In this document: piece by piece, positions 26,976-61,260 of the stretch
Layout: every line of letters starts with the position of its first letter
Numbering within the stretch: position 1 is the stretch's first letter
From: Octopus vulgaris
Lineage: Eukaryota
NCBI GenBank assembly: GCA_951406725.2
Contig: OX597822.1
Coordinates: 9,486,001-9,550,000 of the forward strand
DNA: 64,000 nt
Direction: 5' to 3'
The notes under the pieces: model-generated
What the model was told of the DNA's origin: nothing
What the model saw: the letters and a program-made list of their open reading frames with translations, nothing else
Databases searched by the model: none
Made by a program: the position numbers and the translations under genes

Positions 26976-27606
26976 AAATATATATTGAATATTCTGCTGG
27001 ATAATAGGTCATGTTCCTCTAGTTTTCTGTTTGCACTGCCTCCATTCAAGTTAGTTCTAAAACTAGACCCATGAGTACAATTCTTATCTCTTGATTTGTG
27101 TTAAACACACCACTCATTCTGATTTGTACTAAATACACTGGAATCTCCCGCACACACATAGATATAGCCACGCATTTCCAAATATATAGACAAGTTTTTC
27201 AACAGTGCATTCACTATTATAGATTAAGTCATCAATAACTGACGAACGGTGTATAATACTGTCCCACTGAATATGGCCAATAATATTCTAAAACGCCACT
27301 GGGTAGAAAACGAAATCACTGCACTGATAAACGCTTGGTACACTCACCACAATGAAGCTAATGTTTACAGTAAAATAGCTGAAAAATTAGTGTCAGAATC
27401 TTTTTACAGATCTGTAAAACAGATCGAAAACAAAATAAAAATCACAAGATCATTTCATAATTTACACATGCACATGGCAACACTAGAAGCTATACTTGTC
27501 AATGGATGTAGTGCACCAACTGACCCAAGTCCAATAGGTCAGGGGTCACTTCAACTAGCCAGCAACAAACATATCCCTATCTGACCTGATTCCACCCAAC
27601 ACTGCT

Positions 27607-28956
27607 ATGGCAAGCCAGGACTCACTACCACAACAACAGCCAGCTACTGCATTGGAAGCACCTTGTTTGGCACCACTATCTGACCTGATTCCACCCAGCC
27701 CTACTATTGCAGGTCAAGATTCACTGCCACTACAGCAACAAAAACAGTCTGCTACTGATACTACAATAGGACCACTGACCACTGAGCCTGAGAGTATAGA
27801 AAAACGTCTACTGTGCCCATGTCAAAAATCCTGTCATTACCAGTCTCAAGGCAACTGTAGATTTGGCCCCAGCAGCACCAACAACACGGGATGCTGTGCT
27901 TTTTTCCATCCTACCTTATGCCATAGACTTGTTAAGGGCACCTGTCCATATGGTATAACAGAAAAAAACTGCCCTCATCTCCACCCCAAATACTGTCCTA
28001 AATACAGAGTCCATGGCCCTGATCCTAAATATGGATGCACAAAAGGCAAGGGAAGCACCTTCTTCCATCCTAAACTGTGCCAAACTTCTGTGTCACTAAG
28101 GATGTGCCTGAACCCAGAATGCAACCACCACCATCTGAAGGGCACAAAACGATCACAGAATAAATATAAACAGGAACAGAGGAAATCTAGGACAACAACA
28201 AAAACAAAATACAACCACGTTTCCCCTCCTACAATCAAACAACGTAGACAGAACCATGAAAAAACACCAAATAACGCCAACATGAAATATGTATCCTCTG
28301 ACCAAGTGACAAACCAAACAAGTAACTCTTTTTTACTGACATACCTAGAAAATATGAAGGCCGGCCTAAGCCAGGAGATCCAGCGAGCTATCACCAACGG
28401 TCAGCGAAAAAACGAATACCAGTTGAATTCTAATTCGAAAATAATAGAATTCATACACTTCAATGAATGTACAGTAATTTACCATCCTAAAGAGGTTCAA
28501 TCGTGTTCTAGAAAAGAATGGAACACATTCAACCATTTCCATATTATATGGAATTCAATCATCAGACCTGGCGAGAATCAGCGCCTGAAATACATACGAA
28601 GCTTATATAAGAAAGCTACCAATTTAGATCGATTCATACCTGAGTGCCAAAGAGTAAAATTTCCTAGTAGCATGGCAAACTATTTCTGCCAAGAACCGAG
28701 AAAAGTATTAATTGCAGGCACAGACGACATAAATAAAACATTTACTGAATGGTGTCAATGTGAATATATACCAAAACCTACACAAACTGAGATCGCAACT
28801 ACATCGAAGCAAGTCGTCAACGACGAGCCATCCTTCAAAAGTAGAATTGGAACGACTCTAACTTTATTCAATTACCTTACTTACATTTTCACTAGTAAGA
28901 GATTTCGTAACGAACAAGAAATGAAATCTCACTGGCTGAACAGAGGTAACAGGTAA
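27607..28956 (+). CDS. Chimeric ORF: LINE ORF1 CCCH fingers fused in frame to the parvoviral NS1 HUH domain
   Basis: 449-aa open frame crossing the insertion junction at 28398/28399; CCCH array at ~27830-28135; HFHII (HUH) at 28534; expression unknown. Confidence 0.65.
   Translation: MASQDSLPQQQPATALEAPCLAPLSDLIPPSPTIAGQDSLPLQQQKQSATDTTIGPLTTEPESIEKRLLCPCQKSCHYQSQGNCRFGPSSTNNTGCCAFFHPTLCHRLVKGTCPYGITEKNCPHLHPKYCPKYRVHGPDPKYGCTKGKGSTFFHPKLCQTSVSLRMCLNPECNHHHLKGTKRSQNKYKQEQRKSRTTTKTKYNHVSPPTIKQRRQNHEKTPNNANMKYVSSDQVTNQTSNSFLLTYLENMKAGLSQEIQRAITNGQRKNEYQLNSNSKIIEFIHFNECTVIYHPKEVQSCSRKEWNTFNHFHIIWNSIIRPGENQRLKYIRSLYKKATNLDRFIPECQRVKFPSSMANYFCQEPRKVLIAGTDDINKTFTEWCQCEYIPKPTQTEIATTSKQVVNDEPSFKSRIGTTLTLFNYLTYIFTSKRFRNEQEMKSHWLNRGNR
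28332..28398 (+). repeat. Left copy of the 67-bp direct repeat flanking the viral insert
   Basis: tttactgacatacctagaaaatatgaagg...atcaccaac; 62/67 identical to 30012-30078. Confidence 0.9.
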
Positions 28957-30011
28957 CAATGACAATTTCATGAGGGCGATTAGTCACCCTATGTATGATG
29001 CAGTTATGAAAAAAGTTCTGGAGTGCGTGAAATTAAAAATATTAATAACACCATTCATTAAAAAATTTGAAGATATGAACTGGAGTTACTTCGAGAACGA
29101 TACTCGTCACTATCTAACAAAAGAGGTTTCTCTGAAAATATTCCACTCCATCTTAATGACACAGGAAATTGACGAAAGTACCTTCGTTAACAACGTTTGG
29201 TATTTATTGAACAAGAAACTACCAAAATGTAATCTCCTTGTGTTAAGGGGTTTGCCAAATACTGGCAAATCAATGGTTGCTCGAAGTATTGCTGAGCTGT
29301 TCACTCACGTCAGCACGATCCAGGGGACAAGTAGTTTCCCATTCCAAAATTTGCTTAATGTAGAAATAGGTTTAATCGAAGAACCGAATTTCACTTTAGA
29401 AACCCTTCAGACTTTCAAGAAGCTTGCTGAAGGGACTGACACTGAAGTGTCTGTCAAATATAAACCAGACCAAATTGTTCACAGAACACCATTGATAATT
29501 ACATCAAACAAATTCGACAGCAACGCGCCTTTACACGAAAGACATGCTTTCATAACAAGATACCCAGAGTATCTATTCAATAAATCTTCTCCCTTCCTTC
29601 AATATGTAAAGAAAAAGATTAATCCTATTATATGGAATGTTTTATTTTATGAACATTGTTTTTCTTCTCTAATTACTGACGATGGTTCCTCATCAGATGA
29701 CAATTTATGTCACATTCTAGAAGAGTACGAAATTCTCACAAACAGAGACGCCGACAAAGAAAACAGAAGACCAAGTGGATTTCGGACTCTATCTAATAGT
29801 GGAAGCGGGTCAACCGTTAGAGTGTTCTCCGAAACAGACGAAGAAGAACAACTCCCAGAAAGAAAAAGAAAGTTCAGAAAACTGACGTACAAACCAAACT
29901 ACGAATCTGATAGTGAACTATCAGATACAGAACTGTAATTCTTTTTCATTTTTCATTTTCAATTATATAATTTGTAATCTGTAATATTAAATAAAAATGT
30001 TAAAAAAAAAA
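28399..30011 (+). other. NS1: Endogenous parvoviral element: NS1/Rep (HUH endonuclease + SF3 helicase)
   Basis: HUH NHFHII; Walker A GLPNTGKS (29249-29272); Walker B IGLIEE; B' FKKLAEG...VSVKYK; motif C PLIITSN; acidic C-terminus; AATAAA at 29990 and A10 at 30002-30011. Confidence 0.85.
28970..29938 (+). CDS. NS1: SF3 helicase half of parvoviral NS1 (322 aa, open)
   Basis: All SF3 motifs intact; joins the upstream HUH half if the aggtaac duplication (28944-28957) is collapsed. Confidence 0.8.
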   Translation: MRAISHPMYDAVMKKVLECVKLKILITPFIKKFEDMNWSYFENDTRHYLTKEVSLKIFHSILMTQEIDESTFVNNVWYLLNKKLPKCNLLVLRGLPNTGKSMVARSIAELFTHVSTIQGTSSFPFQNLLNVEIGLIEEPNFTLETLQTFKKLAEGTDTEVSVKYKPDQIVHRTPLIITSNKFDSNAPLHERHAFITRYPEYLFNKSSPFLQYVKKKINPIIWNVLFYEHCFSSLITDDGSSSDDNLCHILEEYEILTNRDADKENRRPSGFRTLSNSGSGSTVRVFSETDEEEQLPERKRKFRKLTYKPNYESDSELSDTEL

Positions 30012-30078
30012 TTTACTGACATACCTGGAAAATATGAAGGCCGACCTAAGCGAGGAGATCCAGCGAGCGATCATCAAC
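30012..30078 (+). repeat. Right copy of the 67-bp direct repeat; LINE ORF1 resumes
   Basis: Reads LLTYLENMKADLSEEIQRAIINHLCKSQ versus the left copy LLTYLENMKAGLSQEIQRAITN. Confidence 0.9.
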
Positions 30079-30335
30079 CATCTATGCAAATCACAAGGAC
30101 CACTCACCCATTACCAACTTCCCTTACCTCGACATTCCTGTTAAATGTACGTGGCATCAACCCATCAATCATTGCCCAAAAATGGAAGATTCCCATATAT
30201 AGAGAGAGAGAGAGTCAGCTTGCTGAAACGGCACATTGCTTCCCTTTCTTTATTCCTACAGAAACTCACCTAAACAGCACACATATGGATGCCGAAGTGA
30301 AAATAAAAGACTTCACCAGCATCCATGCAGATCAC

Positions 30336-30545
30336 ACAGACCAAATTAAAGGAGGGACAGACCAAATTAAAGGAGGGACAGACCAAATTAAAGGAGGGAC
30401 AGACCAAATTAAAGGAGGGACAGACCAAATTAAAGGAGGGACAGACCAAATTAAAGGAGGGACAGACCAAATTAAAGGAGGGACAGACCAAATTAAAGGA
30501 GGGACAGACCAAATTAAAGGAGGGACAGACCAAATTAAAGGAGGG
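30336..30545 (+). repeat. Perfect 21-bp minisatellite x10 in the LINE endonuclease
   Basis: (acagaccaaattaaaggaggg)10, encoding (TDQIKGG)10 in frame. Confidence 0.95.
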
Positions 30546-33015
30546 ACAGCCATCTTTCTCCATGACTCCTTTTCAGTCAATGCCAAGGACATATTTTCCA
30601 ATGGCTTTTGTGAATCTAAAGACATAATCATTGTCGGTCTTTACAGGCCTCCCCAAGCACCTCTGAAGTGCTTTGACGAGTGCCTCAACAAAATCAAGTC
30701 CTTCCTTCAAAAATACAACTCCAGGAACATACAAATGATGGGCGATTTTAACCTCCCTCATATAAACTGGCCCACAAATACTCTGAAGTTAGGCAAATGC
30801 TCTACATCAGATAAAGCAGCACCAGAATTACTCTTTAATCTAATGAATAAATTCTTCCTGACTCAGCTAGTGCTCGAACCAACAAGACAGAAGAAAACGA
30901 TCTTGGATCTAATATCAACCAACCATTCTAGCTCCATTCACAGTATTTCAGTTGAAAAAAACTCTCCTCTCAGACCACGACATGATACTCTGCAATTTTA
31001 ATTCCCAGCAAATCAAAATCAAACCACCCAATCTCATCCATGGCACTCATTTGACAACAAACTTTCACAAAGCGAACTGGGCAGCAATCAGAAAGGATCT
31101 GTCTTTCATTGACTGGTCTTTCACTCTCAGTTCCACCCAAATTGAGACCGCATGGCAGCACTTTGAGAACATTGTCACCTATACATGCTCTAAACAAGCT
31201 CCTACGAAATCCACTAACATAAACCGGCTCCCTAAAGAGAAAAAAAAAACACTCATCAGGCGCATCAAAAGACTCAATAAAAAAATCAACTAATTAAAAT
31301 ATTCCCACATACAACAACAATGAAAAGGCTGGAGTTGGAAAAACTTCATCTGCAGACCAACATGAAAACTTCCATTGAAAATCAAAGAGCTGCTGAGGAA
31401 CAGTGAGTAATCAAAATCATCAAACAGTAGTGTTCTATTATTATGCAAATAAACATAGAACCACTATCTCACCAACTGGGCCATTGATCGATGATAACAG
31501 CATTCTCCAACACGATGCTAAAGAAATGGCAGAAATAATACTGCTCTGTCTTTAGTGATCCCACTGATATTGATGTAAGAGAAGCGAACGAAGTTGATTC
31601 CCAACATAAAATCTCAGACATAACCTTCACTGCCTCTGGCATCGTAGCAACAATAAATAAGGTCAAATACTACTCTGCTGTAGGCCCTGATAGATTCCCC
31701 GCTAGTCTCCTGAAGGAATGTAGACATCTACTTGCAGTCCCTCTGATCAACATCTGGAGAAATTCTTTAGACACCGGTTATATACCGAAACAGCTCCTAT
31801 CCCAGTCTGTCATCCCAGTTTTCAAACAGAGAAACAGATCCCTCGCAGTCAACTATCGCCCAATCTCACTCACCTACCACATCATTAAAGTGTTTGAAAG
31901 CGTGGTAAGATCAAGGATAGCTGACTTCCTGGAGACCCACAAACTCCTAAATGCAGATCAGCATGGCTTTCGCTGTGGCAGGGACTGTCTAACACAGCTC
32001 TTACACCACATTGAAGATACACTTAAGGCCTTGGGAACAGGTTCGAACTCTGATGTCATATATCTTGACTTCAGTAAAGCATGCAACAGGGTTGACCATA
32101 ATATCCTACTCTCAAACTAGGCAAATGTTGGAATCCATGGAAAACTTCTACACTGGATTAAATATTTTTCTGGCGAATAGAACACATGTTGTGGTCGATG
32201 AAGTCCACTCAGGCCCAGCAAAAGTCACCAGCGGTGTCCCTCAGGGGACTGTCTTGGGCTCACTCCTCTTTATAATTTACATAAATGACCTTTTCAGTGT
32301 CGTAAATCACTGCAAAGTGAAAATATTTGCTGATGACACTAAGCTCCAGCAAATCATTAATGAAGAAGAAGACCAAATTCAACTCCAGTGAGGTCTATAT
32401 GAACGCGGGAAAATTTGAGCAGATGCATTTTGGAAGAAAGTCTATACTAAAACAGCCATACTCTCTTCCTTCAGGGCAACTGCTCACAAAATCTAATAAT
32501 ATTAGAGACCTGGGTGTAATTGCAGATAACAATCCCAGTTGGAGTGCCCATATCAACAATAAGGTCGATATAGCTCGTAAGATGAGCTCCTGGTTCTTAA
32601 GAACCTTCCGGTCCAGAGAACAAGGTGTCATCATTCCACTTTTCTCCTCCTTTGTACAGCCACACCTCGAATATTGCTGCCCCTTGTGGTCTCCCCATAC
32701 AAAACAAAACATCTCGAAAACTGAATCACCCCAGAGGGCACTCACTAAACGAATTGAAGGCATGGCTGCTCTCGATTATTGGGACCACCTTAAAGCCTTG
32801 AAATTCTACTTTCCCCAGCGTCGCCGTAAGCGGTACATCATTTGTACGATGTGGAGAATATATCGCCAACTTTGCCCAAATGACCTGAACATTAGCTTCA
32901 AGGTTCATCCGAGTTGGGACCACGGGCCATACGTCCCCTGCCCAATTTAGGATCAGAGCATACGTGTACACTGCGACACAATTTCTTTTCTTCAACAAAC
33001 CCTGCCCTGTTTAAC

Positions 33016-35610
33016 ATCTCATTGACTATGTCATTGTACGTCGTTCTGATCGACAAGATATAAGTCTTACATGCTCTTACAGTATAGGGAAATGTTGGTT
33101 AGATCACAAATTGATCTGCTCCACAATCAAGATGAAAACCAAACGCCTTGTTTGAAATCAACGTAGTTCTCCCATCAAGGAAATTGATGTGGACAAGTTG
33201 AAGGTTAAGGAGATCTTGCAGTTGTTTCAAACGGTTGCTGATGAAAAGCTGTCCTCCATTATATGTGGGAATGACATTGAGGCATCTTGGTCAGAGTTTA
33301 AAACTGCAGTGTATGACTCTGCCAAAGAGTCATTAGGATATGTTCGAAGGAAGAACCAAGATTGGTTTGATGAAAATGATCCAACCATCCTCCCTTTGCT
33401 CAGAAACATGCATCATGTGTGGATTACTGACAAAAATTCCTCAGTTGGCACAATCTCGGCTCTGGAAAATGAAACAAAACTGGTGGAAATTGAAAGCCCA
33501 GGCCTTACAAGATGCAGCGGATAAGTGCCATTTTAAATCTTTCTACCAAAATCTCAAAGGTGTCTTTGGTCCCATCTCAAAGAGGGCATCTCCAATATTT
33601 TTGTCAGATGGCACTCTCCTTACCGATAAGAAAGAGATTACTAAGTGCTGGGCTGAACATTTTTCAAATGTTTTAAACAGAGAATCGACAGTGGATCAGG
33701 AAGTGATTGATAATATTCCTCAGAAGCCAACCATCGAGAATCTTGCTGACAGTCCACCCATGTCGGAGGTTGAAAAGGCTATAAAGCAATTGCCAAATGG
33801 TAAGGCTCCATGTGATGATGGGATACCTGCAGAAATATACAAATGTGGAAGCCAACTGCTAATCAGGAAACTAAGTGCTCTGTTTTCTTCAATATGGGAA
33901 CTTGGTACCGTGCCACAACAGTTAAAAGATGATTCAATTATTCACCTATTTAAGCACAAAGGAAATAAATGTGAGTGTGATAACGATAGAGGAATTTCTC
34001 TCTCATCTGTTGCTGGTAAGATTCTAGCGCATGTAATCTTAAACAGACTCAATGATTCAATTTGTAAAACTGTGCTCCCAGAAACCCAATGTGGTTTCCG
34101 GTCTGGAAGAGGCACTGTGGATATGATCTTCAGCTTAGGGCAACTACAATAGAAAGCAAGGGAACAGAATAAGGACTTGTTTGTTACCTTTGTTGATCTC
34201 ACTAAGGCATTTGATACCGTCTCCAGGGATGCCCTGCGGACTGTTTTGAGGAAGCTTGGTGTTCTAGACAACATGTTAATGTGATTGTCTCCTTTCATTA
34301 TGGAATGATGGCATCAGTACGGTCTGACTGCGAACAAAGTGAACCATTTGAAGAGTCAAATGGAACCAAGCAATGATGTGTCCTTGCTCCGATCTTATTT
34401 GCTCTTTTCTTTTCAGTGATGCTTGAAACAGCCTTCAAAGACACCTCGGAAGGTGTAGGTGTTGAGTATCGATCAAGCAGAGGGTTATTTAACCAGCAGC
34501 GGTTCAAAGCCAAAACCCGGACTTTTGTGCAAACTGTTCTTGATCTCCTTTTTGCTGATGACTGTGCTCTTGTCACCCATAGTCTTGAGGACATGCAGAA
34601 CATCCTCAATAGCTTCTCTGATGCATGTAAGGCCTTTGGTCTTACAATTAGCATAACGAAAACTGAACTTATTCACCAGCTGAAACCAAACTCTTTGCCC
34701 TCTTCACAACAAGTGGTATATGTTGATGGTAAAGCTTTGAAAACAGCATCTTCTTTTACATACTCTATTGTGTCTGATGATGCAAAATTTGAAAAAGATA
34801 TCCAAAACAGAATCAGTAAAGCAAGTGAAGCATTTGGTAGGTTGCGACACAGACTCTGGAACAGCCACGATGTGTCTCTGAAAGTAAAAGTAGCAGTCTA
34901 CAAATCTGTTGTTCTATCTACTCTTCTGTATGGTGCCAAAACGTGGACCTTGTATCGCAAGCATATCAATCAGCTTGATTCCTTCCATATGAGATGTCTG
35001 CATTCTATTTGCAATGTTAAATGGCAAGATTGTGTTCGAAATAGTGAGTTGCTGGAGAGGTGTGAGATCACTGGTATTGAAACATTTTTGATTAAGATAC
35101 AAATGCGGTGGTCTGGTTATCTCGTAAGAATGGATGACTCAAGAGTTCCAAAGCAGCTTTTTTATGGGCAATTGACAAATTCTTCCGTCCAACAGGGCAT
35201 CTTCTTCGTTACAAGGACAAACTAAAAGACAATCTGAAGCGTTGTGACATTGCTCTGAGCTCCTGGGAGAGTGCAGCAGGGGATCGCAGCAAATGAAGGA
35301 ATGTGTTTTCTAAAGACTAGAGAATTTGAAAGTAACCGCCTTCATCATAGGGAGGCCCTTCGTGCAAATTTGAAAGCAACGCATCAGCAAAATCTACCAA
35401 ACATTGATTGTGTGTGTCACTGTAGGTTGAAAGCACGAAGCAAAGCTGAGTTAGCTGTCCACCCGAGAAGACATTTTGAACCAACGAATACATGCAAATG
35501 TACCATTTGCAAGAAAGTGTGCAAGACATCTGCTGGATTGAAGGTACACATGCAGTGTCACAAGGCTTAGGAATTGTTGAATGCTATTTACTGAACCCTC
35601 ATTCATCGTC
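33016..35610 (+). mobile_element. RTE-clade LINE, 5'-truncated and degenerate, with C-terminal C2H2 fingers
   Basis: LIDYVIV, RKNQDWFDE, GKAPCDDGIPAE, RGISLSS, PETQCGFRSGRGTVDMIF, FVDLTKAFDTV, LLFADD; tail CTICKKVCKTSAGLKVHMQCH. Confidence 0.85.
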
Positions 35611-57332: not shown

Positions 57333-58206
57333 TGCGCCCCGCCCCCCCACCCCCACCACCAATACCGTTGAACACTGTTCTCACCCCCACCACCAATACC
57401 GTTGAACACTGTTCTCACCCCCCCACCACCAATACCAGTATACCCCGTTCTCTCCATCTACACCGGATACACCTTACTCATCTACACTGGGTACGCCCTA
57501 CTCCCTCCTCCTCCCCCACTACCCCTTCTCCTCATATGCTTAAGACAAGCTGCTAGCGCCATAGCTCATCAACTGCCCACCGATCTTACGCTTCCTCCTG
57601 ACACTGCCTCAATCCGACCATCCCCTTTTAGTACCCTCCCGCCTCGTCAATCCGACCATCCCCTTTTAGTACCCTTCTCCTCATATGCTTAAGACAAGCT
57701 GCTAGCGCCATAGCTCATCAACTGCCCACCGATCTTACGCTTCCTCCTGACACTGCCTCAATCCGACCATCCCCTTTTAGTACCCTCCCGCCTCGTCAAT
57801 CCGACCATCCCCTTTTAGTACCCTCCCGCCTCGTAATATCCTAAGTTTTTATTTCTTAGGAACCTACACCAACCCTTCCTGCCATCGTTCCTCCTTACCC
57901 CAACCTTCCCCACTGGTTGCTCCCCTATATTACCCGCCTCAACTGGACCCCCCTCCCCAACTCAACTCTAGAATATCTGTATTTCTTTCCTCTACCTAAT
58001 TACGTTACTCAGTGACGATAACAAATGTCCACTGCTAACACCAGCTCCTGCCCACGGCGTGGTCAGGTTGGAAGAGAGATCAAAAGAAAAATACCACGAA
58101 AACTATCACCACCACTACAACCCTCCTCTTCTCAGGCGCCGAATCCCCCTGTCCCCCCCACATCTCCTTCCCAGTTTTCAGAGTTGGCACTATCAATGTT
58201 GGTACA

Positions 58207-61200
58207 TTGACAGGCAAGTCTAGTGAGATTGTAGAGATGCTAGAGAGAAGACAGGTTGATGTATGCTGCATACAAGAGGTAAGATGGAGAGATGCTTCGG
58301 CTAGGGTCCTCACGGGCAAGGCATTTAGATACAAACTCTACTGGCAAGGTAACGCGGAAGGTGTAGGGGGTGTAGGCATTCTCCTTGCGGAGGAATGGGT
58401 GGATAAGGTCATAGAGGTTGTCAGGGTTTGTGATAGAGTGCTTAAGCTCAGGTTGGTCCTACAGAGTGGCACAGCTATGATTATCTCAGCCTATGCCCCA
58501 CAAGCGGGACTACCAAATGATCAGAAGGACAACTTTTATGATACCCTTCTGCAGGCTACTTCAAAGACTAGTAACAAGGACCTCATCTTTGTAGGTGGAG
58601 ATTTTAACGGGCATGTTGGGCGGGAATCGGGTATCTTCACTGGGGTACATGGTGGATATGGTATTGGCACCAGAAATGATGAGGGAACTAGACTACTGGA
58701 ATTCTGTGATGCATGTAACCTTTCAATCTGCAACACTAACTTCAAGAAGCCAGTCTGCCACCTTATAACTTATCAGTCAGGAGACTCCGCTAGCCAAATA
58801 GACTTCATCCTCACCAGACAACGGGATGCAGGGTTGCTCTTGAATACAAAGACCCTCCCGGGTGAAGAATGTATCCCTCAGCATAGACTAATCATCAGTG
58901 ACTTTAAGCTTGAGGCCAGAAGGACTCCAAGAAACAAACCAATCCAGAAAAGAAGGATTTGGAGGCTAAAGAACCCTTCGCATGGTCAGAAATTTAGGGA
59001 CATACTCATCAAGAAATTTGATGAGAGGGAAGAGGAGCTTCAGACGTCAGACATAGAAGGTAGCTGGGAATTCCTACGGGACAGCTTGTTGAGTGCCACA
59101 GACCAAGTTTGTGGATGGTGCAAAGTCCCTTCCAGACCTAGAATTACGTGGTGGTGGAATAGTGCAGTAGATAAAGCCATCTGTGAAAAGAGACGGGCCT
59201 GGAAAGCCTGGAAGGATGGGGGCAGCAGGGAACTGTACCAGATAGCCAAAAGGGAGGCTGGGCGGCAGGTATACATTGCCAAAGATGTAGCAGAAAAGAA
59301 GAAGTTTGCCAATGTCCAGCGTCGCGAGGATCAAAGAGCTGAAGTATTTCGGATTGCCAGACAGTGTGTCAGAGAAAATAGCGATGTTATAGGAGAGAAA
59401 TGTGTCCGCATGGATGATGGGGCACTTGCTTTTACTACTAGTGAAAAGAAAGAGGCTTGGAGAAGCCATTATGAAAGACTGCTAAATGAGGAGAATGAAT
59501 GGGAGGAGGAGAGCCTGCCAAATGTTGACCCAGTAGAGGGACCAGCTACCCGAATAGACAGCTCCCTTGTAGATAAGGCAATTAAGGATATGAAACCAGG
59601 CAAAGCCCCTGGCCTATCAGGAATCACTGCTGAGATGCTTAAAACAGCTGGCTATGTGGGCCATGCCATAGTCACCCGCATTGTAAACCAGGTAGTTCAC
59701 AATGGAGCCATACCCAATGACTGGTGCAGCAGTACCATAGTCAACTGCTACAAGGGTAAGGGTGATGCTCTAGATAGAAATAACTACAGAGGTATCAAAC
59801 TGTTGGACCAGGTGATGAAGGTCTCAGAGAAGGTCATAACCAATCTCATTAGGGAGAGAATTTGTTTAGATGAAATGCAGTTCGGTTTTGTACCAGGTAG
59901 AAGCACCACTGATGCTATATTCCTGGTCCGACAACTGCAGGAGAAGTACCTAGCTAAAGATAAACCCCTCTACATAGCTTTTGTAGACTTGGAGAAAGCC
60001 TTTGACAGGGTTCCCCGTTCCCTTATCTGGTGGTCGATGCGGAAACTGGAGATTGAAGAATGGCTAATAAGGGCTGTACAGGCTCTATACAGAGAGGCTG
60101 TTAGCAAGGTTAGGATTGGCAACGAATATAGTGAAGAATTCCGAGTAGAAGTAGGTGTGCACCAGGGCTCAGCCCTCAGTCCCCTTTTGTTCATCATAGT
60201 CCTTCAAGCAATAACAGAGGAATTCAAAACGGGATGCCCCTGGGAGCTCCTCTATGCCGATGACCTAGCTCTCATAGCAGAATCACTACCGGAACTAGAA
60301 GAGAAATTTCGGGTATGGAAGCAAGGGTTGGAATCAAAGGGCCTTAGAATAAATGTAGCAAAGACCAAAGTATTAGTAAGCAGCAAGAGGTACTCAACAC
60401 ACATCCCCTCGGGTAGGTGGCCCTGCTCAACCTGTAGGAAAGGTACAGGTAGAAACTCCATAAGATGCACCCAATGTAAGTTATGGACACATAAGAGGTG
60501 CAGCAACATTAAAGGGAAATTAACAGATAAGATAGCTTTCATGTGCGGCAGATGCACAGGGACAATAGACACAACAGACACTCAGAAAACAGATTCCATC
60601 ACACTCCAGGGAGAGAAACTAGAAGTAGTTGATAGTTTCCGCTACCTGGGAGACCAAGTTAGTAGCGGAGGTGGATGCACAGAGAGTATCACCACTAGAA
60701 TACGAATAGCCTGGGCAAAGTTCAGAAAGCTCCTACCCCTACTGGCAACAAAAGGCCTCTCCCTCAGAGCAAAAGGTAGATTATATGATGCATGTGTGCG
60801 AACTGCCATGCTTCACGGTAATGAAACATGGGCTGTGACTGCAGAAGACATGCGTAGACTTGAAAGAAATGAAGCTAGCATGATCCGCTGGATGTGTAGT
60901 GTCAGTGTGCACGCAAAACAGAGTGTAAGTATCCTGAGAGAAATGCTGGATATAAGAAGCATCAGATGTGGTGTGCAAGAGCGACGCTTGCGATGGTATG
61001 GTCATGTGCTGCGGATGGATGAAGAGAGATGTGTGAAGAAGTGCCACTCCCAAACAGTTGAAGGTATCAGGGGGAGAGGTAGACCCAGGAAGACATGGGA
61101 TGAGGTGGTCAAGCATGACCTCAGAGCATTGGGCCTCACTGAGGCAATGGCGAAGGACCGAGATCTCTGGAGATATGCTGTGACTACAAAGACCCGGGCT

Positions 61201-61260
61201 GCTTTCTGCAGCAATTCCACATACCCCCTACCCATTCTAAGTACCCCCTACCCATTCTAA
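58207..61260 (+). CDS. RTE ORF: APE endonuclease + RT with inserted PHD-like finger (frame open from 58039)
   Basis: GTINVGT, CIQEVRW, GDFNGHVG, QIDFIL, NYRGIKLL, QFGFVPGRSTTDAIF, FVDLEKAFD, HQGSALSP, YADD; CSTC...CTQC...HKRC...CGRC; no stops. Confidence 0.9.
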   Translation: MTGKSSEIVEMLERRQVDVCCIQEVRWRDASARVLTGKAFRYKLYWQGNAEGVGGVGILLAEEWVDKVIEVVRVCDRVLKLRLVLQSGTAMIISAYAPQAGLPNDQKDNFYDTLLQATSKTSNKDLIFVGGDFNGHVGRESGIFTGVHGGYGIGTRNDEGTRLLEFCDACNLSICNTNFKKPVCHLITYQSGDSASQIDFILTRQRDAGLLLNTKTLPGEECIPQHRLIISDFKLEARRTPRNKPIQKRRIWRLKNPSHGQKFRDILIKKFDEREEELQTSDIEGSWEFLRDSLLSATDQVCGWCKVPSRPRITWWWNSAVDKAICEKRRAWKAWKDGGSRELYQIAKREAGRQVYIAKDVAEKKKFANVQRREDQRAEVFRIARQCVRENSDVIGEKCVRMDDGALAFTTSEKKEAWRSHYERLLNEENEWEEESLPNVDPVEGPATRIDSSLVDKAIKDMKPGKAPGLSGITAEMLKTAGYVGHAIVTRIVNQVVHNGAIPNDWCSSTIVNCYKGKGDALDRNNYRGIKLLDQVMKVSEKVITNLIRERICLDEMQFGFVPGRSTTDAIFLVRQLQEKYLAKDKPLYIAFVDLEKAFDRVPRSLIWWSMRKLEIEEWLIRAVQALYREAVSKVRIGNEYSEEFRVEVGVHQGSALSPLLFIIVLQAITEEFKTGCPWELLYADDLALIAESLPELEEKFRVWKQGLESKGLRINVAKTKVLVSSKRYSTHIPSGRWPCSTCRKGTGRNSIRCTQCKLWTHKRCSNIKGKLTDKIAFMCGRCTGTIDTTDTQKTDSITLQGEKLEVVDSFRYLGDQVSSGGGCTESITTRIRIAWAKFRKLLPLLATKGLSLRAKGRLYDACVRTAMLHGNETWAVTAEDMRRLERNEASMIRWMCSVSVHAKQSVSILREMLDIRSIRCGVQERRLRWYGHVLRMDEERCVKKCHSQTVEGIRGRGRPRKTWDEVVKHDLRALGLTEAMAKDRDLWRYAVTTKTRAAFCSNSTYPLPILSTPYPF

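Follow-up and report, generated by a model that had tools for sequence, protein, structure and literature searches.

A parvoviral NS1 gene fragment lies inside a LINE in the octopus DNA analysed here, a stretch of 64 kb referred to as the window. With slightly more confidence than doubt, it is read as the NS segment of an undescribed bipartite octopus parvovirus. This lineage would descend from a 4-kb monopartite virus and would have become segmented separately from the Acheta domesticus segmented densovirus (AdSDV); its NS segment would have entered the genome within a LINE-virus-LINE chimera which gene-converted part of an older LINE. Two-part genomes are rare among parvoviruses. In the open-access literature a single described case was found, the cricket virus AdSDV (Penzes et al. 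2023, PMC10267136), which the available portion of a further source also names as the bipartite case (PMC13426907), and no bipartite parvovirus of octopus was found there; subscription papers and supplements may list such loci. If true, the present reading would add a second, independent segmented genome to the Parvoviridae and would make segmentation a repeated route rather than a one-off.

The NS1 gene of the insert

The insert comprises 1,613 bp (28399-30011) and encodes a parvoviral NS1 with HUH and SF3 helicase regions that is 5'-truncated and carries one frame break (Table 1). The N-terminal piece lacks the first ~40 codons and shares its frame with LINE ORF1 (open frame 27559-28956). 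The gene runs in two frames that change over near 28940-28956, and neither piece contains an internal stop. The C-terminal piece matched Pfam Parvo_NS1 (E=1.4e-15) and PPV_E1_C (1.9e-13), and the Pfam search with the N-terminal piece gave no match. Both histidines of the HUH motif are nearly invariant among 52 relatives and the NS1 family profile matches the RepB HUH domain (E=0.002); an N-terminal HUH endonuclease is predicted from these similarities. The same profile retrieved AAV Rep and NS1 at 1e-28 to 1e-31 versus 1e-12 for papillomavirus E1, and a predicted NS1 model (pLDDT 84) aligned to full-length AAV2 Rep68 over 513 columns. For the model of the full-length relative P0002, every named match among the 50 listed was a Parvoviridae NS1 (two had no name), the identity of named viral NS1 among these listed matches being 14-27%. 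The SF3 helicase is closest to parvoviral NS1/Rep, and papillomavirus E1 was discarded as a source of the insert on the basis of the profile E-values and the NS1 model matches.

Table 1. Features of the LINE locus and its viral insert (positions in the window)
Feature	Position	Strand	Remarks
Old-subfamily LINE, 5' part	27052..28097	+	broken ORF1 (Myb/SANT, CCCH); Myb_DNA-bind_4
Left arm, young-subfamily LINE, A subtype	28155..28398	+	breakpoint between 28098 and 28155
Left copy of 67-bp LINE stretch	28332..28398	+	5 mismatches vs right copy
NS1 N-terminal piece with HUH	28399..28956	+	His-Phe-His at 28534-28542
NS1 C-terminal piece with SF3 helicase	28940..29938	+	Walker A at 29249-29272; ends at stop codon
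Viral 3' UTR, AATAAA and A10	29939..30011	+	AATAAA 29990-29995; A10 30002-30011
Right copy of 67-bp LINE stretch	30012..30078	+	G subtype at 30027, three private changes
Right arm, young-subfamily LINE	30012..30116	+	young-specific ~98-bp deletion; breakpoint ~30116-30229
Old-subfamily LINE, 3' part	30229..33017	+	endonuclease and RT in broken frames; 3' tail missing
21-bp tandem array in old LINE 3' part	30336-30549		

An initial annotation made from the letters alone had described an HUH-SF3 gene of parvoviral NS1 type with the motifs GLPNTGKS, IGLIEE, FKKLAEG and PLIITSN, ending in a stop, a short UTR, AATAAA and A10, lacking a capsid gene and bounded by 67-bp repeats with five mismatches. 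All of these elements were recovered at the same positions, and neither a capsid match in the window nor a terminal hairpin in the insert was found. The A-run starts only 6 nt past AATAAA. The same annotation regarded the locus as a parvoviral fossil of the germline, which is supported for octopus. Octopus NS1 fossils as such have been known since 2016, when parvovirus-related sequences of Octopus bimaculoides and Lamellibrachia were listed (Francois et al. 2016, PMC5013282). One of them, A0A0L8GWZ8 (P0003), belongs to the same NS1 lineage, is 84% identical and sister to the window protein, and was recorded as genomic and adjoining a transposable element. The available portion of that paper deals with fragments only; it describes neither how they were inserted nor a capsid unit or the layout of the genome. 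In addition, the C-terminal piece is 69% identical to a 547-aa relative, and a clade of octopus and annelid sequences was supported in a tree of 72 mostly unnamed relatives.

By a rough estimate, the chance that ~510 codons remain free of internal stops is 0.44 at 1.2% divergence and 0.03 at 5%. Because this open length fits low divergence, the insert is assigned the same age as the young LINE arms that flank it. Compared with the paralogue at locus C29, dN/dS was 0.12 (243 codons), which shows that the two diverged in a replicating source. Contigs of all four runs searched (three organism labels, four studies) cover portions of the insert, each piece differing from it at 0-2 letters; parts without cover in two of the runs were left unused. 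The initial annotation had called for read support across both junctions. Cover of parts of the insert was obtained in 4/4 runs, and on the LINE side each junction was crossed by one contig with 30 matching letters, one short of the bar for bridging.

The mosaic host LINE and the 67-bp repeat

The host element, a putative member of the CR1 clade, carries endonuclease and RT, an ORF1 with Myb/SANT and CCCH, and a tandem-repeat tail. The family ends in such a short tail, not in poly(A), in 13/14 copies, and the young subfamily ORF2 (EN and RT) is open for 1019-1028 aa in 4/14. The interruption of this LINE by the insert had been recognised in the initial annotation, but the mosaic nature of the host and a separate capsid-only unit had been missed. 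The 5' part is old-type at 20/22 diagnostic sites, its closest LINE copy being 7.7% away over 27800-28097; on the other side, 30229-30997 is old-type at 14/15 sites and 30525-33017 is 85% identical to young LINE copies. Between these parts, the left arm is young-type at 14/15 sites and the right arm at 3/4. The nearest copy of the left arm has 3 differences in 244 bp, and its 8-site haplotype is the commonest A haplotype, carried by 19 of the 55 young copies. Genome searches likewise gave a best hit of 99% for the left arm and of 90-91% for the outer LINE parts. Private changes amount to 5/422 inside the young patch versus 41/863 outside (Fisher p=7e-4, the patch limits being read from the same data as the test).

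Young sequence has replaced 245-300 bp to the left and 100-200 bp to the right of the insert in an old, decayed copy, and this old-young-young-old pattern was seen in no other of 84 LINE copies. Two adjacent LINE copies were considered and discarded, both outer parts being old-type and collinear. No target-site duplication was found around the whole host LINE. Short stretches of the opposite type are present in other copies (L089, L028, L029 and L079), so conversion is a background process of the LINE family.

The 67-mer occurs once, as the initial annotation had expected of uninterrupted copies, in 77 of 84 distinct LINE loci and is absent in seven. These loci extend only 1.5 kb on each side, and the empty-site point rests on the flanks and not on the count: in other LINE loci, the 67-mer joins the window's left flank before it and the right flank after it. 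The two 67-mers of the window differ at a subtype marker, A in the left and G in the right copy (30027). The right variant is unique in the genome, and a genome search found no subfamily that carries it. In all seven full-length young copies the flanking repeats measure 7-10 bp. Target-primed reverse transcription (TPRT) leaves a short, identical duplication of resident sequence, whereas the window holds 67 bp with five mismatches and foreign young arms. Judged from these sequence features, the 67-bp repeat is unlikely to be a target-site duplication.

Routes of entry into the LINE

Template switching, one of two mechanisms put forward in the initial annotation, leads among the explanations, tentatively and at somewhat below even confidence, in the form of a double switch yielding a LINE-virus-LINE cDNA, followed by homologous overwriting of the old LINE. 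RNA of a young LINE of the G subtype would have been reverse-transcribed as far as the T-run at 30012, where the LINE reverse transcriptase would have jumped onto a viral NS template at the A-run, possibly aided by short T-run microhomology (at this point the closest paralogue reads A6 followed by T7). The enzyme would then have copied 1.6 kb of viral NS and re-entered a second young LINE RNA, of the A subtype, 67 nt downstream of its exit, giving the 67-bp repeat. Finally, the young arms would have paired with an old LINE copy and replaced ~0.4-0.6 kb of it by homologous recombination. All pieces, LINE arms and NS1, lie in the same orientation (+) and are joined directly, the outer ends run into collinear old LINE sequence with no short direct repeats such as would mark a new site, and intact young LINE copies exist as a possible source of the enzyme.

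Double template switches by LINE reverse transcriptase have been described as the origin of tripartite chimeric retrogenes (Gogvadze et al. 2007, PMC2104539). As far as the available portion of that report goes, these also join three stretches copied from different templates, among them a LINE, directly and in one orientation, but they lie at new sites with direct repeats of 14-16 bp, whereas at the octopus locus the middle piece is viral and homologous LINE arms took the place of a stretch of an older copy. Capture of non-retroviral sequence with the help of retrotransposons is likewise known from an LCMV-IAP recombinant cDNA and from bornavirus and filovirus EVEs made by LINE-1; in the accessible part of the review (PMC3205384), however, these cases involve RNA viruses and LTR recombination or a short TSD plus poly(A), and parvoviral EVEs are put down to genomic DNA and end joining.

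Several points weigh against the double-switch cDNA. There is no direct sign that the viral template was RNA, and paralogues encode the A-run in DNA: AATAAA followed by 4-9 nt and an A-run is common to the NS loci C29, C5 and C12 and to the capsid unit at C4, and the order of stop, UTR, A-run and stem-loop without a capsid gene is found in 3/7 other NS1-like loci. The A-run is probably encoded in the viral DNA. Since three paralogous NS1 loci carry it in DNA, A10 is no proof of an mRNA origin; the A10 and the missing capsid gene, from which such an origin had been deduced at first, stand as observations but are weakened as signs of an mRNA. More generally, parvoviral fossils that hold NS alone and carry an A-run do not have to derive from mRNA. 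Moreover, the two LINE templates depend on the single site 30027, and one template with one mutation is possible, as 3/55 young copies combine G with a left haplotype that is of the A type elsewhere; the three further private changes of the right 67-mer also count against two templates. The conversion-like stretches are family background, one left-arm site (28202) is old-type, and the LINE family itself ends in a tandem-repeat tail rather than poly(A).

A close rival, rather unlikely in itself, is DNA-level repair, in which young genomic copies served, without reverse transcription, to mend a broken old LINE. The ends would have been copied from different young LINEs with a 67-bp overshoot, viral NS DNA being caught between them. 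It accounts for the mosaic, for both subtypes and for the overlap equally well, the A-run end of the insert abuts the T-run as plausible microhomology, and mending of LINE breaks from homeologous LINEs has been reported (PMC7407515, available portion). Terminal stem-loops are part of the C29, C5 and C12 paralogues and of the C4 concatemer, which indicates that viral DNA integrates in the octopus germline. However, repair must leave to chance both the shared orientation and the end exactly at AATAAA and the A-run without a stem-loop, which an RNA template predicts. Entry in two steps, with NS1 inserted into a young LINE elsewhere under a 67-bp duplication and this copy later acting as gene-conversion donor to the old one, is improbable: it is consistent with the mosaic and with the conversion-like patches known in the family, but the assembly yielded no further copy of the insert above 87% identity, the 67-mers differ at the subtype marker and two rare events are required.

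The other mechanism first proposed, in which a polyadenylated NS mRNA entered the resident LINE by simple TPRT and left a TSD of 67 bp, is very improbable. The direct repeats, 5' truncation and 3' A-run fit it, but the young arms in an old copy are left unexplained, which largely refutes it, and it further conflicts with the subtype mismatch, the flanking repeats of at most 10 bp in young copies and the genome-encoded A-run of the paralogues. In L1 priming, a T-rich primer pairs with the poly(A) tail, whereas the repeat here opens with a T-run and offers no T-rich primer for such a tail. Hardly credible at all is a young patch created in assembly or polishing by the abundant young subfamily. 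Among the contigs of the four runs none links old and young LINE parts, as this would allow, but contigs of two other runs place young-type bases beside the insert, both junctions being represented, and the arms retain private alleles and a structural deletion, unlike a polishing product. If the double-switch cDNA with overwriting is correct, homologous replacement of an old LINE would be an EVE route without ordinary TSD, datable via LINE subfamily markers.

Genome organisation of the donor virus

The donor virus was fairly likely bipartite, with an NS-only unit of ~2.1 kb and a capsid-only unit of ~2.3 kb, in which case the absence of a capsid gene from the insert needs no appeal to mRNA. 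At C4, on another chromosome, there is a concatemer of a hairpin-flanked unit holding only a 536-aa PLA2-capsid gene, made of three forward and two reverse partial units that are 99.4-100% identical and without NS1. Its hairpins have z -20.5 and -5.4 (0/200 shuffles), it possesses a separate 5' region that includes a TATA-like box, and tblastn found no NS1 remnant in it. The 3' UTR and A-run architecture at its ends is homologous to that of the NS loci, but the hairpin sequences differ. Its 3' UTR scored 94, 121 and 114 against the NS UTRs (shuffle means 44, 37 and 39; 0/500 each) and 50 against the window UTR (shuffle mean 31; 1/500). Four NS loci, 13-30% apart and under purifying selection, all have the NS1 stop joined directly to the UTR, and among 8 NS1-like and 5 capsid-like loci none has NS followed by capsid on one molecule. 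Pfam Parvo_coat had no match in the genome and none in the controls either, and is uninformative.

Against two segments, no NS locus keeps a 5' end and none is shared, and the NS stem-loops are weak (z -2.7, -2.3 and -0.9) and not identical to those of the capsid unit. The capsid-only unit is a single event that abuts an assembly gap, and a second capsid piece, on C5, is without UTR. C12 and C29 hold capsid and NS pieces mixed in one locus, as fragments only, which also fits the rather unlikely alternative of a monopartite virus whose NS-only and capsid-only loci are internally deleted defectives, or whose NS-only form is a capsid-less replicon borrowing from a helper. In its favour, the nearest outside NS1 (P0065) and capsid (P0224, 41%) each lie on a 4,017-nt contig; they probably belong to one monopartite genome, the link being their equal size only. 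A monopartite virus is harder to reconcile with the shared stop-UTR join in four selected NS loci whose UTR is homologous to that of the capsid unit, with the capsid unit's own 5' region, TATA-like box and lack of NS1, and with the full-length NS1 relative P0002 on a contig of 2,093 nt. Viral contig scans with the window SF3 piece, P0079 and P0065 yielded no relatives, nor did metagenome contig scans with P0002 and P0224.

As in AdSDV, NS and capsid cassettes lie on separate hairpin-ended units. In the available portion of its description (PMC10267136), the AdSDV segments measure ~3.3 kb and have identical termini, and PLA2 is a gene of its own, whereas the octopus units are ~2.1 and ~2.3 kb, are known here from fossils alone, carry PLA2 at the capsid N-terminus and have termini that are homologous but, coming from different strains, not identical. 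The octopus capsid matches those of PmMDV (6wh3) and PstDNV (3n7x) with no AdSDV entry among the matches, which suggests an origin of segmentation independent of AdSDV. With a probable monopartite outgroup at 41% capsid identity, the transition becomes comparable at the sequence level. Under the bipartite reading the segments are compact, NS-only and PLA2-capsid-only, and infection of octopus would be current or very recent.

NS1 insert and mosaic LINE

The insert carries a parvoviral NS1 split over two frames by a single break. Its C-terminal piece matched Parvo_NS1 (1.4e-15), and the NS1 family profile, in which papillomavirus E1 scored far below both AAV Rep and NS1 of the B19 type, also found a RepB-like HUH domain. 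The parvoviral identity proposed in the initial annotation is upheld, and its repeats, coordinates and motifs agree with re-examination of the sequence. About 40 N-terminal codons are absent, as seen by alignment to a 547-aa relative, and the predicted model of that intact relative is structurally matched by full-length AAV2 Rep68 and by viral NS1 proteins, with identities of 14-27%. The nearest named relatives come from Octopus bimaculoides (84%) and the tubeworm Lamellibrachia. Octopus NS1 fossils were already known, because the O. bimaculoides protein is listed by Francois et al. 2016 (PMC5013282).

The expectation that uninterrupted LINE copies hold the 67-mer once was borne out: among 84 distinct loci (87 from three genome searches minus 3 duplicates), 77 have a single 67-mer, continuous on either side with the sequence that flanks the repeats in the window, and the other 7 are without it. 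Concerning reads, contigs of all four sequencing runs (three organism labels) span parts of the insert nearly unchanged, and each junction is crossed by one contig over 30 letters, one below the bridging threshold. A small extra indel at 28856 in three of the four runs is as expected of decaying sequence.

Sites that distinguish 55 young from 29 old copies show the host LINE to be a mosaic (see table). The right arm carries a young-specific deletion of ~98 bp. Within the patch the closest LINE copy differs by 1.2% and 2.2%, compared with 4.9-13.6% outside it, private changes number 5/422 versus 41/863 (p=7e-4), and the outer parts as genome queries reached 90-91% identity at best. No other copy among the 84 compared has the old-young-insert-young-old pattern, though some contain short stretches of the opposite type and one is intermediate. 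The left arm haplotype is the commonest of the A subtype and position 30027, in the right 67-mer, is of the G subtype, a contrast that consists of this single site and recurs as G with the A-type left haplotype in 3/55 young copies. On a rough estimate from the lack of stops in the insert, its age fits the arms and not the old LINE copy.

Coordinates of features in the window and in the octopus genome searched (G000)
Location	Feature	Detail
27559-28956	LINE ORF1 remnant in frame with N-terminal NS1 piece	465 codons open; chance 1/3
up to 28097	Old-type LINE	20/22 sites
28155-28394	Young-type LINE	14/15 sites
28940-28956	NS1 frame break	approximate
30021-30104	Young-type LINE	3/4 sites
30052-30074	Private changes in right 67-mer	three within 23 bp; one in next 128 aligned bases
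30229-30997	Old-type LINE	14/15 sites
30336-30549	Perfect 21-bp tandem array, in frame in LINE endonuclease region	~10 copies; absent from other aligned copies
58039-61260	Other LINE, endonuclease and RT look	1073-codon open frame, apparently intact
G000:C4:168362000-168377000 (L169, L170)	Capsid array	three forward, two partial reverse units, 99.4-100% identical
C12 (L118:5080-5516)	Capsid fragment joined to NS1 fragment	scrambled order
C29 (L113:7765-7935)	Capsid fragment joined to NS1 fragment	scrambled order
G000:C14:64316000-64342000 (L115-L117)	Viral fossil cluster among ankyrin-repeat duplications	several NS1 pieces, two lineages
L117:1745-2134	CRESS-type Viral_Rep piece	E=9e-23
G000:C19:23965600-23967000 (L122)	Distant NS1	27-31% identity; Parvo_NS1 E=8e-17
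G000:C22:543535-544740 (L183:4535-5740)	Capsid-like open frame, Q-rich N-terminal part	402 aa; 23% to capsid

Origin of the insertion

The phenomenon at this locus is real, with both the NS1 identity and the mosaic demonstrated, and an artefact is hardly credible. Our leading reading, held tentatively, is that a chimeric cDNA would have formed by two template switches and then been installed in the old LINE by homologous replacement; we infer its RNA templates, order of steps and microhomology. It would explain the presence of young arms, the overlap, why all pieces share one orientation and why the insert stops at a polyadenylation signal without the hairpin. Repair at the DNA level that captured viral DNA fits the first two features but neither of the last two, and is the less likely account; a lost donor locus is improbable. 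Parvoviral EVEs are usually attributed to genomic DNA (PMC3205384). Template switching, one of two routes initially suggested, is preferred, and the other, simple TPRT, is very unlikely. In the young subfamily, flanking repeats are 7-10 bp in 7/7 full-length copies, ORF2 is intact in 4/14 fetched copies and a tandem-repeat tail is present in 13/14. The locus would work like the tripartite chimeric retrogenes described in PMC2104539, but lacks the direct repeats that flank those.

The A10, first taken as a sign of mRNA origin, is weakened as such, since paralogue DNA has the same arrangement. Among seven other NS1-like loci fetched, those on contigs C29, C5 and C12 have, after the stop codon, an AT-rich UTR and AATAAA, then 9-15 A residues and a related, modest stem-loop (z -2.7, -0.9, -2.3), beyond which lies unrelated host DNA. 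In an alignment with C29, the insert ends at the proximal AATAAA, where A6 and T7 follow in DNA; the A10 can therefore mark either the end of a transcript or a break in DNA next to the hairpin. The C15 locus stops shortly past the stop codon, and C1 and C14 pieces are cut before that end. Relative to C29, dN/dS is 0.12 and dS 0.45, which marks the copies as captured separately, from a source that was replicating and diverse.

Capsid units and organisation of the donor virus

A capsid-like piece adjoining the C12 NS fragment led to the C4 array (168.362-168.377 Mb), a concatemer with amplified terminal repeats between an assembly gap on the left and host sequence on the right. Its ~2.3 kb unit runs from a long palindrome through a 5' region of ~340 nt, which contains a TATA-like box, and an ORF of 536 aa to the 3' UTR, A-run and stem-loop (hairpins z -20.5, -18.1, -5.4). 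Units are joined at amplified hairpins both head to tail and in inverted order, resembling products of rolling-hairpin replication. The ORF, deposited as an Octopus vulgaris capsid, has a parvoviral PLA2 domain (2.2e-13) and matches the PmMDV capsid, with an IHHNV capsid match below threshold.

We judge it fairly probable that the donor was bipartite, with NS-only and capsid-only units. A tblastn search of the 36 kb surrounding the capsid loci on C4 and C5, with four NS1 proteins as queries, gave no match, and the capsid 3' UTR is homologous to NS-locus UTRs beyond 500 shuffles in 3/4 comparisons (1/500 shuffles was as good for the window's short UTR). One full NS1 of the octopus clade sits on a contig of 2,093 nt; outside that clade, the closest NS1 and the closest capsid are both on 4,017-nt contigs, probably one monopartite genome. 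A less likely explanation is that the genomes were defective, or that the NS unit was a replicon dependent on a helper. Against the bipartite reading stand the capsid and NS fragments joined at C12 and C29, an NS 5' end absent from the NS1-like loci examined, a capsid array that represents a single event and adjoins an assembly gap, and NS- and capsid-locus hairpins that are not identical. AdSDV is described as the first bipartite parvovirus (PMC10267136) and given as the one such case in a 2026 paper (PMC13426907); the open-access literature searched contained neither a second one nor an octopus parvovirus genome.

Other viral remnants

The C19 NS1 is a second parvovirus group in the octopus genome, and one C14 piece belongs to the same distant lineage. 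The C14 cluster may be a small-RNA cluster. The C22 frame, with no NS1 within 10 kb, is possibly a co-opted capsid. Of the octopus NS loci examined, two retain the HUH part, in the window and at C14:64338316, and several others (L113, L119, L115, L116) start near NS1 residue 177-186. A small stem-loop (z -2.5) lies upstream of the C5 NS1 piece. Annelid-type NS1 relatives (P0010-P0058) could be an NS1-only mobile family, as large contigs carry numerous nearly identical copies of full length (one cluster n=18).
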